Source: a virus. From it: a DNA stretch of 64,000 nt. The position numbers and the translations under genes are program-made. The notes below the pieces were generated by a model. The model ran no database searches and had not been told where the DNA came from. It saw nothing but the letters and a program-made list of their open reading frames with translations. The stretch is from positions 6,280 to 70,279 of the IMG/VR virus record IMGVR_UViG_3300033148_002257. One strand, written 5' to 3'. This document shows, piece after piece, positions 21,391 to 63,498 of the stretch. The stretch's first letter is position 1. Each line of letters begins with the position of its first letter.

Positions 21391-22393
21391 CTTTATCCCT
21401 CCGTTCAAATATCTCTTCACTTACCCCGCCAGTATCACATATAGGACGATATTCACACATGTCACCATAGCGTATACATGCATTCTCGTTCTGATAAAAC
21501 GACCCACGTTCTTCACATTCTCGTATCTCTTGCGCTACAAACATATACCGATGAATTAACGCACTAAAATCAAACTCGTTACGATAAAACCTTTTACCAA
21601 ACGTTTTAGCCTTTTTATCCCAACCAACAAAATAATATGACGGGCGACTGATTATATCTTGAAATATACGTTCTTCAAACCCGTCAACAGATTCAGCAAC
21701 GTTACGTGATCTACCAGCTTTTAGCGGTTTCTGTCCAGGTCGTCGTACAACTTGCATAATACAGTATTGTAAAGAGGAGTCTAACATAAAATATGTACCA
21801 ACCTGTGAAGTTATGTTAGGTACAGCTAAATAGTTTTGCGGATTACCTACAAACTTGTTTTCAATAAAGAATCCTGGCCCTTTACCGTCATAAACAGCCT
21901 TTACAAACGGCATAGTATAATTTTCAACTGGCGGCAAAAGTTCTGTGACAGCGACTTGGGGTGTGATTTTTTTTGGCAACTGAAGTTGTAAAGATTCAGT
22001 TGCGCGTATAACAGCTAGAACTTTTGCCGCCTCATAAGGGGGAATTTCCAGTTTATCTATTATCTCCGTTAACCCGTCAAACATAAAAGTATTCTCGTTA
22101 TAATAACTATCACACGCTTTATCCCATATTTTACCTAACTTAATAGCGTTACTCGCTTTTGCGTCTTTAACCCTAATCCCCTGTATATAAGAGTAATAAT
22201 ACTCTCGCCGACATCTACACCAGGTTTGTACTGCGCTATGTGACAGTCGAGGAGCTAACGTTTTTATCGCTTCCGTACATAAAAACTTTGAACCTAGTTT
22301 ACACAGCCCAGGTTGACCTTGCGCTGTCCGTATATAATGAATACACGGTAACTGTCCGCCAGGTACTATCTGTCGTTTTTCACATTTAGACAT
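21371..22393 (-). CDS. PD-(D/E)XK RecB/Cas4-like exonuclease
   Basis: LSHSAVQTWCRCRR, D...IENK, QVGTY, C-terminal C...CEYRPIC. Confidence 0.8.
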   Translation of the reverse strand: MSKCEKRQIVPGGQLPCIHYIRTAQGQPGLCKLGSKFLCTEAIKTLAPRLSHSAVQTWCRCRREYYYSYIQGIRVKDAKASNAIKLGKIWDKACDSYYNENTFMFDGLTEIIDKLEIPPYEAAKVLAVIRATESLQLQLPKKITPQVAVTELLPPVENYTMPFVKAVYDGKGPGFFIENKFVGNPQNYLAVPNITSQVGTYFMLDSSLQYCIMQVVRRPGQKPLKAGRSRNVAESVDGFEERIFQDIISRPSYYFVGWDKKAKTFGKRFYRNEFDFSALIHRYMFVAQEIRECEERGSFYQNENACIRYGDMCEYRPICDTGGVSEEIFERRDKDVYARG

Positions 22394-22415
22394 AACCGGT
22401 TATCCAATAGAAATA

Positions 22416-22533
22416 ATAGGCAGTACAGAAACGGGCACAAAGGAGCATAAGGGGGAACAGTTACGGTTGTTACGAATAGAACAAGAGGGGTCGGTAAGAT
22501 AAAGTAACAACCACAACAATCTGTACTGCCTAT
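22416..22533. ncRNA. candidate structured RNA/leader with a 14-bp terminal stem
   Basis: ATAGGCAGTACAGA/TCTGTACTGCCTAT perfect inverted repeat; inner GGTTGTTAC/GTAACAACC stem. Confidence 0.5.
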
Positions 22534-22559
22534 ACTTCAACATTTTCAAGCTTTTCCTA

Positions 22560-22589
22560 TTGACAAATGTTTAGCCGATATGGTATACT
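22560..22589 (+). promoter_or_regulatory. sigma70 promoter antisense to the surrounding genes
   Basis: TTGACA-18 nt-TATACT; shares TTTCCTNTTGACAAA and GATATGGTATACTGT with the 1251 promoter. Confidence 0.65.
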
Positions 22590-22599
22590 GTCTAACGTC

Positions 22600-22652
22600 C
22601 TTCCGAAAGGGAGACACCCCTTAGGCTGTCGGACTTCTGTCCTTCAGCCTTT
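22600..22652 (-). other. hairpin element 1 of the AAGGGAGACACCCC family
   Basis: Minus strand GGCTG-AA-GGAC-AGAA-GTCC-GA-CAGCC then GGGGTGTCTCCCTT. Confidence 0.55.
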
Positions 22653-22959
22653 TATTTTCATCTTCGACAAGGTGACTCCGTACCGTTGCCACGGGATATG
22701 AACAGGGTATGAAATGTTTAACCGACAGATTCTAACGACGTTTCTCCGTCCAGACTGTTCGTTATCAGCTATGTTCATTCTTATCTATTCCCCACCGTTA
22801 TCGCTATGAAACGAAGGTATAAACACCGATCTTCGTAACCGTTCGACAAGTTCATACCGTCGAACCATTTGTCTGTACGCAATCGATTGAACCAAAAATG
22901 CAAACCATCCTATAAACGCTATAAATATCAGTATCGCTTTCACTATATCTCCTAAAAAT

Positions 22960-23120
22960 AGACTTGGCTGGACTTAGCTTTTGGCTTACCAGCACAACTG
23001 AAAGCAGATTAGCGTATCATGCTAAATTCAGTTGACCTGCCCTGTGACCATACGGTGATCGTGCCGTACCAGCGACAGTGCGTTACCCCACCTGCTATAA
23101 GGTTTTTCCGCCACAAGCCT
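22960..23120 (-). ncRNA. structured tRNA-like ncRNA candidate 3 (clearest cloverleaf)
   Basis: Acceptor AGGCTTG/CAAGTCT; TGGCGGAA...AACGC D-arm; CTGT/ACAG arm with TACGG/CCGTA; variable arm CAACTGAA/TTCAGTTG; T-arm GCTGG...AAGT-CCAGC. Confidence 0.65.
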
Positions 23121-23166
23121 ACAGACTCTTGGGTTTTCCTTCTTGTTCCTTCCGACTACAGCTATT

Positions 23167-23196
23167 AGTATAACACATCCTGTACCAAAAAGTCAA
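23167..23196 (-). promoter_or_regulatory. sigma70 promoter upstream of ncRNA 3 and the recombination operon
   Basis: TTGACT-18 nt-TATACT with TG extension. Confidence 0.7.
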
Positions 23197-23591
23197 GCGG
23201 AAAACCGTTGCCATACTTTCCGCCACCACGGCTGCCTGTGATTGTACGTTTCAATACGAGAAACAACCAGTCGTCGTCGCGGTTCAATATCTTCAACAGC
23301 AACATCAGACGTATCCATCTCTTTATGCAACTCTAACAACCCATAATCCTGTAACCGTTTTCGTACAAGCACATTAACTCCACGATCCATTCTACTCAAC
23401 CGTCGTCTGGTAATAGATTTCGCAACCGTGTCACGTAACGATATTAACTCTATACTTTCTAACAACGCATTTAACGCTGCATCTTTTTTCTTTTCACGAC
23501 GTTTAGCCAGTTGCCATAAAGTGTTGCCAAACACAGCTATTCCAGCCCAAAACCATTCTTGTTGTAATAACCATATAACTTTATTTACCAT
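23193..23591 (-). CDS. membrane-anchored hypothetical protein
   Basis: N-terminal hydrophobic helix; C-terminal QPWWRKVW. Confidence 0.55.
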   Translation of the reverse strand: MVNKVIWLLQQEWFWAGIAVFGNTLWQLAKRREKKKDAALNALLESIELISLRDTVAKSITRRRLSRMDRGVNVLVRKRLQDYGLLELHKEMDTSDVAVEDIEPRRRLVVSRIETYNHRQPWWRKVWQRFSA

Positions 23592-23910
23592 CTGGTATTG
23601 CCTTTATATTATAAAATACACGTTTACCCCAAAGTTGTGCGTTTTCGTGTTCGTTAATTGAACCTTGACTGTCATGCCATCCGTTTACCATATATATAGC
23701 GTCACAAAACCGTTCGAGAATATCCAACCCTGCATCTAGGAACACCGTATCGTCAACTATACCACCCATACCTTCCCATAACAAATGTGGCGAAACAGGA
23801 ATATGACCTCGTTTTAATATTTCAACCGCTGCTTCTCTCGCTTTAATAATATTTTCACGTACTTCATTTTCCGTTTCAGCACGATACGGTCCTGCAACAT
23901 AAATAATCAT
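23581..23910 (-). CDS. DUF4406/DUF1937 nucleoside deoxyribosyltransferase-like protein
   Basis: IYVAGPY, PVSPH, CDAIYMVNGWHDSQGSINE. Confidence 0.8.
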   Translation of the reverse strand: MIIYVAGPYRAETENEVRENIIKAREAAVEILKRGHIPVSPHLLWEGMGGIVDDTVFLDAGLDILERFCDAIYMVNGWHDSQGSINEHENAQLWGKRVFYNIKAIPDGK

Positions 23911-24830
23911 ACGTTGTTAACCTCAATTCGAACGCTAATATATTCTTCTTTGTTCATACGTTTTCTAACTGGCGTTATCTCTATTTCCGGTGTACCTATA
24001 ACCGCAGGTGGCCGATGTTGTCGCGCTACATAGTTGTCCGCTCCTACCATATACCCACGTCTATATCCGCCACATCGAACGTATCTAACCGGTCTAAACA
24101 ACATATGCGGTCTTTTACGCCACATAGTTAATCGTAAAGGATTATCGCCGGTAGCTTGTTTATCATGATTATGTCCTGCTAAATAAAGGTTAGCATCTGC
24201 AATATCTCTTAACTTTACAACAGCGTTTATACTTCCACCTTTTGTACGACCGCCACCTATCGTCTCGCCATGTACCGCTAAAATGTCTATTGCAGTTGTT
24301 TTATTAGTCCGTTCAGCGGTAATTGACATATGTATCAACGCCATACCACCTAAATTTACAGCACGTAACTCGTCCGGTTGTAACTTTTTGTTATACTGTT
24401 GCGCTAAATAGTCTGTAGAGTTCTGCCACCCATCTTTACCTAACCTAATAACGCCACGATGGTTACCGTCTAACATCCATCCTATCCGACCACGCATATA
24501 CGAAGTGGTATCCGCAAAATCGTCTAGTTCAGCTTTAAACTGGTTTGAAAGTCTGTCAAAATGTTCGCTATGAAAGTCAGGGTTCATTAACGCAGCCCGT
24601 TCAGACCGCGACATACCTTCTATCTCGTCACCCATAAGTCCAAACACAACACAATCGCCATTATCAATTCGCGCTTTACATTTGTCGTTAAAAGCCTTAA
24701 AAGCGTCTTTGTCATGAAAAGCACAATATCGGTGAACGTCGCTAAGAGGATATAAATAGATAGGTTGACCAAACTTGCGAGTGGTTACAGTAAACTGGTG
24801 AACTGTAAATAGATACGGTTCAAATATCAT
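23907..24830 (-). CDS. calcineurin-like metallophosphoesterase
   Basis: SDVH, GD, GNH, VHG and GHNH motifs. Confidence 0.8.
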   Translation of the reverse strand: MIFEPYLFTVHQFTVTTRKFGQPIYLYPLSDVHRYCAFHDKDAFKAFNDKCKARIDNGDCVVFGLMGDEIEGMSRSERAALMNPDFHSEHFDRLSNQFKAELDDFADTTSYMRGRIGWMLDGNHRGVIRLGKDGWQNSTDYLAQQYNKKLQPDELRAVNLGGMALIHMSITAERTNKTTAIDILAVHGETIGGGRTKGGSINAVVKLRDIADANLYLAGHNHDKQATGDNPLRLTMWRKRPHMLFRPVRYVRCGGYRRGYMVGADNYVARQHRPPAVIGTPEIEITPVRKRMNKEEYISVRIEVNNV

Positions 24831-63413: not shown

Positions 63414-63414
63414 C

Positions 63415-63471
63415 GCCGAAACCGGGCTCCGGCCCGGTCTGCTAGACGTGGTGGTCTGGCACTGACGAGGT
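63415..63471 (+). ncRNA. type II hammerhead ribozyme
   Basis: GCC-GAAA, stem III CCGGGC/GCCCGG, GUC cleavage triplet (C63439), stem I TGCTAGAC/GTCTGGCA, CTGACGA, GGT closing stem II. Confidence 0.88.
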
Positions 63472-63498
63472 AGCCGAAACATAAGGAGGGTCAGAACA

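Follow-up and report, generated by a model that had tools for sequence, protein, structure and literature searches.

The window, which is the whole stretch of DNA that was analysed (64,000 nucleotides), spans bases 6280-70279 of a virus record that is complete at 70,279 bp and has direct terminal repeats. The genome encodes a tape measure protein, a J-like central tail fibre, a portal protein, a large terminase, a helicase, a Sak4-like annealing protein and a PD-(D/E)XK nuclease, a gene set that fits a long-tailed phage. The best cultured-phage matches of the terminase were at most 31% identical, and the only relatives of the portal and helicase proteins were found at seven loci, with 24–32% identity. 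No relatives of the flanking 340-aa and 132-aa proteins were detected among viral contigs, nor did a blastn search with positions 22000-24500 match any of 50,697 phage records, both in collections that may lack this genome itself and very close ones.

The RNA described here occupies a 249-nt gap between a 132-codon ORF (23591..23193) and a 52-codon ORF, both on the minus strand. The 52-codon ORF had neither a PHROG nor a Pfam match. As the first-pass annotation had reported, the RNA has a promoter-like site of its own upstream, ending 45 nt before the closing stem P1; by itself it carries little weight, since the region gave five such sites against 2.9 ± 1.6 in shuffles. The predicted transcript start is near 23160. 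The sequence right behind P1 is UUUUAGGAG; AGGAG and the GTG start follow P1 at 4 and 14 nt, respectively, with the GTG 5 nt after AGGAG. The features of the locus are listed in Table 1.

Table 1 Features of the RNA and its flanks on the minus strand, in window positions.
Feature	Position	Strand	Evidence or remark
Sigma-70-like promoter, TTGACT-18-TATACT with TG extension	23167..23196	-	10/12 hexamer matches
Purine-rich leader at the canonical P0 place, without a convincing hairpin	23123..23160	-	Rfam marks P0 pairs as non-standard
P1 5' strand GUAGGCUUG	23114..23122	-	5 modelled P1 pairs all standard
UG linker between P1 and arm 1	23112..23113	-	Both columns invariant in alignments A1 (55 sequences) and A2 (42)
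Arm 1, GCG/GAAAA/ACCUUAU-AGCAG-GUGGGGU/AA/CGC	23080..23111	-	8/8 modelled pairs standard
Arm 2, long interrupted 42-nt hairpin, base CUGUC/GGCAG, 8-nt loop CACGAUCA	23037..23078	-	
Arm 3, 40-nt hairpin, 8-bp base CAACUGAA/UUCAGUUG	22995..23034	-	Fold and Rfam alignment
Arm 4, 5-bp stem GCUGG/CCAGC, 17-nt loop UAAGCCAAAAGCUAAGU	22967..22993	-	5/5 pairs standard
P1 3' strand CAAGUCUAU	22958..22966	-	Pairs with GUAGGCUUG, 9 bp including two G-U
UUUU then Shine-Dalgarno AGGAG, directly after P1	22949..22957	-	Sequence
52-codon ORF, GTG start, hydrophobic N-terminus	22785..22943	-	No PHROG or Pfam match

The stretch is a genuine structured non-coding RNA of about 165 nt (23122..22958, minus strand). 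Both the minimum-energy fold and the centroid fold are exactly a five-way junction, in which the 9-bp P1 and the UG are followed by four arms. In arm 1, an outer stem of 3 bp (GCG/CGC) is separated by the conserved internal loops GAAAA and AA from an inner hairpin of 7 bp, which is capped by the loop AGCAG. Arm 2 is equated with arm 2 of the family named below by position only. Arm 4, the stem of which covaries across that family, runs straight into the P1 3' strand. Folding stability gave z = -2.41 for the 165-nt core (3/200 shuffles were as stable) and z = -1.55 with the flanks (15/200 as good). These energies are only modestly better than those of shuffles; the case beyond chance rests on homology and covariation instead. 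The earlier view that the RNA is something other than a simply decayed tRNA is supported.

The first-pass annotation had described tRNA-Leu/Ser-like landmarks in the stretch, with an extra hairpin in every loop. All the elements that it listed are present on the minus strand, among them the UG after the first stem, an extended arm at the anticodon position (arm 2), a long variable arm (arm 3) and the GCUGG/CCAGC stem that it called the T-stem (arm 4). Two others differ in extent or register: the stem taken for a 7-bp acceptor exists, with those 7 bp being the inner part of the full 9-bp P1, and the GCGGAA...ACGC D-arm is present as arm 1, the ACCU/AGGU hairpin seen within it being an alternative register of the inner stem. 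An assignment as a tRNA-Leu/Ser with such inserts is not supported. ARAGORN with default settings found no tRNA gene in the window, and at 95, 90 and 80% of its thresholds, with or without introns, it made no call on positions 22900-23200 (301 nt), the 80% setting being one at which 26/200 and 68/200 shuffles were already called. Its first call came at 70%, on the wrong (plus) strand, and there 105/200 and 172/200 shuffles were called as well. With the Rfam tRNA model (RF00005), nothing matched at E ≤ 10 in a local search of 1.3 kb, nor did the entire 70-kb genome contain a match at E ≤ 0.01, whereas 14/14 control genomes were positive.

The T-loop of tRNAs has 7 nt and the consensus UUCRANY. 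The RNA lacks a UUCRANY loop as well as a 5-bp stem bearing a 7-nt anticodon loop; the arm at the anticodon position is 42 nt long and carries an 8-nt loop. There is no CCA end, and the sequence behind P1 shows neither a discriminator base with CCA nor a processing site. An insertion in every loop was not borne out either, in that only the arm-4 loop is enlarged relative to most relatives, measuring 17 nt against 11–12 nt in most clades (13–17 nt in clade D). The likeness to a class-II tRNA is topological: it covers how many helices there are and in what order, the UG where tRNAs have bases 8-9, the G-C-closed 5-bp last stem and the absence of a linker between that stem and the closing stem. 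It does not extend to detector support, anticodon loop, T-loop sequence or CCA, and the arms measure 27–42 nt.

The sole Rfam family matching the locus was manA (RF01745), which aligned over its full model length with 31.8 bits, short of the gathering cut-off of 55.2 bits. The E-value was 4.4e-6 locally, 2.1e-4 when the window was searched with all 4227 families and 5.6e-8 when the genome was searched with manA by itself. We regard the RNA as very probably a divergent manA-class homologue. The family was defined by Weinberg et al. 2010 (PMC2864571), who met it mostly in marine metagenomes, in T4-like cyanophages and in two gamma-proteobacteria; there it lies in the 5' UTRs of genes of various kinds, and they rated it a probable riboswitch for its complex conserved structure and its 5'-UTR position; Rfam 14 (PMC7779021) reports a corrected manA alignment with 48 significant base pairs. 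The supposed tRNA landmarks are the conserved core of the manA superfamily, in which a UG follows the closing stem, a G-C-rich 3-bp stem is followed by GAANAA...GGUAA, and a 5-bp stem has the form G..GG/CC..C. These features account for the impression of an odd tRNA that such loci give when read from sequence alone.

A core pattern of 21 fixed bases with two gaps (GUG.C.GAA.AA, GGUAA.G and UG..GGUA at family spacing), the letters of which are columns invariant in both A1 and A2, matched once in the window and in 0/100 shuffles. In viral contigs it matched at least 120 loci. Clustering of the matches listed by shared 8-mers placed 56 loci in canonical cyanophage manA and 15, 8, 6, 5, 3 and 3 loci in clades E, C, D, B, F and G, respectively, with a further pair (L068/L126), three singletons (L055, L066 and the clade-D-like L051) and the present RNA as another singleton. 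About 20 of the matches listed, in coding-looking DNA, were treated as chance. When 20 sources were scored with RF01745, 18 matched and formed a continuum, and two chance loci had no match at E ≤ 0.01. Three canonical loci stood at the top with 110–125 bits, followed by clade E with 68.5 bits; the middle comprised scores of 51.5, 49, 44.9, 44.2, 43, 41.6, 40.3, 40.2, 39.2 and 35.2 bits; and the present RNA (31.8 bits) was followed by 26.4, 25.5 and 24.9 bits. Another pattern, of 27 bases and specific to clade B plus this RNA, had no match in genome contigs and matched 8 viral and 32 metagenome loci, all of the clade B or L051 type. In six of the seven records carrying the portal or helicase relatives (all but L004), the RF01745 search gave no manA match (0/6).

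An independent covariance model (R1) was built from 42 relatives with the present sequence excluded; clade E and the L018 group, which failed a simple stem finder, were left out of model building and used as held-out tests. R1 had one full-length match in the 64-kb window, at 43.6 bits (rough E 3e-10), and the next score was 5.5 bits. Among 19 chance pattern loci, five were matched at E ≤ 10, with 21.9, 21.8, 12.5, 12.5 and 5.7 bits. Held-out real clades scored 44.8 bits (clade F), 30.6–37.8 bits (clade E) and 73.8–78 bits (a canonical subgroup), so that the RNA falls among them, 21.7 bits above the best chance locus. The score itself is partly circular, because the relatives were gathered by a pattern that this RNA matches, and the 21.7-bit margin is the fair measure. 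A check of the stems pointed the same way. Six chance loci (L011, L016, L063, L097, L123 and L127) could form the 5-bp arm-4 stem, each with at most one contiguous P1 pair; the chance-locus maximum was two contiguous P1 pairs, at loci where arm 4 formed only 4/5 pairs. The RNA forms 5/5 arm-4 pairs and nine contiguous P1 pairs.

For covariation, 77 matches from 79 sources were aligned to R1 (A3), giving 21 modelled pairs; a model-based alignment was used because MAFFT misplaced the 3' half of this RNA. Standard pairs filled 94.2% of the A3 cells, compared with 43.6–52.6% when the 3' partner was slid by 1–3 columns, and 286 cells were changed on both sides, compared with 26–59 when slid; since A3 is fitted to the model, its pair counts lean towards it, and the slid controls are the fairer comparison. 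The covariation score was reached by 0/500 shuffles. Change on both sides occurred at 14/21 pairs, with P1, both arm-1 stems and arm 4 holding 2–4 each, counts that kinship among the sequences inflates. Covariation across the 77 sequences, an analysis that the first-pass annotation had proposed, is strong in the core helices. The RNA forms 19/21 pairs in A3, including rare types such as C-G at columns 6/220, and 18/18 pairs in P1, the outer and inner stems of arm 1, and arm 4. The two pairs that it does not form belong to a small hairpin within arm 2, in place of which it has a different one. As no close relative was found, arms 2 and 3 and the enlarged arm-4 loop are without covariation support of their own. 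A third pair of the arm-1 outer stem also covaries (A2 and A3, columns 14/47), where the Rfam consensus draws only two pairs; in A3 these columns hold G-C 28, U-G 8, C-G 7, A-U 6 and U-A 6 times and are unpaired in 22/77. A kissing or elbow-like pairing between the arm-1 and arm-4 loops, here 4 nt (UAGC/GCUA), was rejected as a family feature because the mean best complementarity across the 77 sequences was 3.44, against 3.59 ± 0.07 when permuted.

The RNA shares with canonical manA the closing stem and UG, an arm 1 with GAANAA/GGUAA round an inner hairpin, two further arms, and a 5-bp G..GG/CC..C arm with a loop starting UA that abuts P1. Both are phage-borne and lie behind a promoter, just upstream of a same-strand ORF. 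Canonical manA, by contrast, has the P0 hairpin, which is absent here, and a branched arm 2 with a GGUGGUG loop, where this RNA has a single interrupted hairpin that is skipped in the Rfam alignment; its P1 has 5 bp instead of 9 and its arm-4 loop 11–12 nt instead of 17. The carriers also differ, for this phage is not a T4-like cyanophage but a long-tailed-looking, 70-kb, tRNA-free phage unrelated to the T4-like cyanophages in which manA was defined. The sub-threshold clades B, C, D, F and G, together with L055, L066 and L068, have the same core, scoring 24.9–51.5 bits with RF01745, and in clades B, C and D as well as in L055 and L068 arm 2 is unbranched, as it is here. Clade B has UGUGGCGGAA.AAC...GGUAACGCA in common with this RNA almost letter for letter but, unlike it, carries a P0 hairpin. 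Clades B, C and D (e.g., L012, L019 and L031) differ further in an unpaired stretch, GU..(G/A)A(A/G)(G/U)UAG, between arms 2 and 3 that is absent here. This stretch is also absent from canonical manA.

The position relative to the downstream gene was compared across the clades. A same-strand ORF starts at most 40 nt downstream in 12/17 clade-B cores (after AAAGGA-type sites) and at 11–16 nt in 7/8 clade-C cores, the flank of the eighth being incomplete. This RNA fits the leader-type position of the family, in agreement with the description in Weinberg et al. 2010 (PMC2864571). At least five U directly after P1 were found in this RNA, in 5/7 clade-C and 7/8 clade-D cores, in 2/34 canonical cores and in 0/17 clade-B cores. 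In seven clade-C loci (L019, L030, L035, L036, L046, L114 and L128), a U run and no Shine-Dalgarno sequence precede the same protein, which starts 11–16 nt on and is small and rich in lysine and arginine (...KTKHAQRKAEK...). When the present RNA was folded with its flanks, leader bases formed weak pairs with the U run and with the GG of AGGAG.

Other arrangements occur as well. Among the matches listed, a terminator-like hairpin lies downstream of 10/70 cores overall, comprising 8/34 canonical and 2/8 clade-D cores; those with the hairpin and a U run at most 90 nt after the RNA are canonical L013, L014, L015, L025, L047, L067, L093 and L116 and clade-D L031 and L051. The hairpin suggests that these copies may be made as separate small RNAs. 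Seven loci (L027, L038, L039, L054, L098, L108 and L121) are flush with same-strand tRNA genes, some being flanked on both sides; among the matches listed, this applies to 7/34 distinct canonical loci and to 0/26 of the non-canonical loci examined. For relatives with a terminator-like hairpin or flush tRNA genes, a free-standing RNA fits better than a leader.

We conclude that the RNA is a new and divergent representative of the manA superfamily, found where manA leaders usually lie and in an unusual phage. We favour the reading of a manA-class homologue that acts as a cis-gating leader. The homology is very probable, whereas the gating mechanism is tentative, at somewhat below even odds, and our overall confidence of about 0.6 blends the two. 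On this reading, the RNA's own promoter would drive a message that has the RNA as its 5' leader, starts with the 52-codon ORF and, judging from gene order, probably continues into recombination and replication genes. The functional unit would be the folded core, most likely acting in cis on the message, and not a tRNA-like decoding activity. Arm 4 would stack directly on P1. Since P1 closes 4 nt before the Shine-Dalgarno sequence and has the U run behind it, completion of the fold could determine the amount of transcript or of translation that reaches the ORF, either by attenuation at P1 and the U run or through access to the ribosome-binding site. The latter route is opposed by the weakness of the pairing that would hide the Shine-Dalgarno sequence, which comprises four A-U or G-U pairs and two G-C pairs.

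The main rival to a cis leader is a free-standing, self-assembling RNA of the manA type, released or terminated after P1 and building an RNA particle (a pentamer-based oligomer or cage), with the ORF being incidental. It draws on a preprint by Ren et al. 2026 (bioRxiv 10.64898/2026.07.01.735769), which reports for five manA RNAs that pentamers, joined through kissing loops, assemble in vitro into octamers, decamers or a cage of 60 subunits, with a conserved core fold and variable peripheral helices; tRNA goes unmentioned in the available part of its text. The downstream hairpins and abutting tRNA genes of the relatives described above agree with it, as do two features of this RNA, the palindrome GAUC in the loop of arm 2 and the U run that immediately follows P1. 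The assembly described in that preprint was, however, in vitro only, at about 3 mg/mL RNA and 10 mM Mg, and this RNA, without P0 and a branched arm 2, offers fewer peripheral loops than the RNAs studied there. Moreover, the Shine-Dalgarno sequence lies so close to P1 that there is no room for another promoter, and expression of the ORF therefore needs read-through. We consider a particle-forming RNA unlikely here. Less likely still is that the RNA senses a metabolite, as a manA-class riboswitch aptamer in control of the ORF behind it. This would follow from the rating by Weinberg et al. 2010 (PMC2864571), which drew on structure and 5'-UTR position; the position is the same here. Our literature search found no paper on a ligand and no report of an in-vivo function of manA, no alternative expression-platform pairing was evident in the folds of this RNA, and the downstream genes have no common theme across clades, being transaldolase-like, plastocyanin-like, a basic small protein and, here, a small hydrophobic ORF (names such as transaldolase-like and plastocyanin-like were read from N-terminal sequences alone).

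RNase P measures the 12-bp stack of acceptor and T stems. A P1 that ranges from 4 to 9 bp among the clades is unfit for enzymes that measure in this way, which argues against a gene derived from tRNA-Leu/Ser that carries structured inserts in every loop and needs their removal or tRNA-type processing. Such a gene would explain the class-II order of the arms, the UG at 8-9, the 3-bp stem followed by A-rich and GG..A stretches, and the G-C-closed 5-bp last stem abutting the closing stem. A resemblance between the two families is already in print: CMCompare 2013 (PMC3692125) connects the models for tRNA and manA at a low 13 bits, through a cloverleaf-like consensus of low score, and describes manA as often beside tRNAs, so that the first-pass impression was of a known, faint family resemblance. 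Against descent of this gene from a tRNA-Leu/Ser stand the silence of ARAGORN and RF00005, the missing anticodon loop, T-loop consensus and CCA, the tRNA-free phage and the complementarity between arm-1 apex and arm-4 loop, which does not exceed the permuted value; we judge it very improbable. Somewhat less remote, but still quite improbable, is an older connection, in which the manA core shared by all clades would be a scaffold descended from a class-II tRNA. The UG would then be like U8/9, the 3-bp stem with its A-rich and GG..A stretches like a D-stem, and the 5-bp stem flush with the acceptor-like stem like a T-stem. A host tRNA-handling factor might still recognise the core, and phages might for that reason put it at mRNA 5' ends or in tRNA arrays; the present copy has a stripped periphery and, at 9 bp, the longest stem of acceptor type, and it would come nearest to a minimal functional core. 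Lastly, a chance fold in an ordinary spacer, or a coding stretch (a 47-aa ORF at 22995..22852 on the minus strand or a 49-aa ORF at 23019..23168 on the plus strand), would fit the modest folding z-score, the short overlapping ORFs and the lack of close relatives in which conservation could be tested. It is hard to square with the Rfam E-value of 5.6e-8, the margin over chance loci in R1 and the 19/21 family pairs kept with different bases, and neither ORF had a Pfam match; we give it as little credence as the tRNA-Leu/Ser gene.

This copy belongs to a known family, members of which are reported to form cages in the 2026 preprint (10.64898/2026.07.01.735769), and it keeps the core without P0 or a branched arm 2. 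Together with the sub-threshold clades, it suggests that the manA family is much wider than the Rfam cut-off shows and that selection acts on the core junction. It also suggests that there is a minimal natural variant on which leader function and assembly could be studied apart.

Two further Rfam matches were obtained in the window. A 37-nt match to CRISPR-DR51 (RF01364) at 23491-23527 on the minus strand (31.8 bits, cut-off 45) is single-copy in the window even with three mismatches, lies inside the 132-codon ORF and is probably due to chance. At 63414-63479 on the plus strand, the same phage carries a type II hammerhead ribozyme (RF02276; 63.9 bits against a gathering score of 37, E 6.4e-11), located opposite the end of a 249-codon minus-strand ORF.
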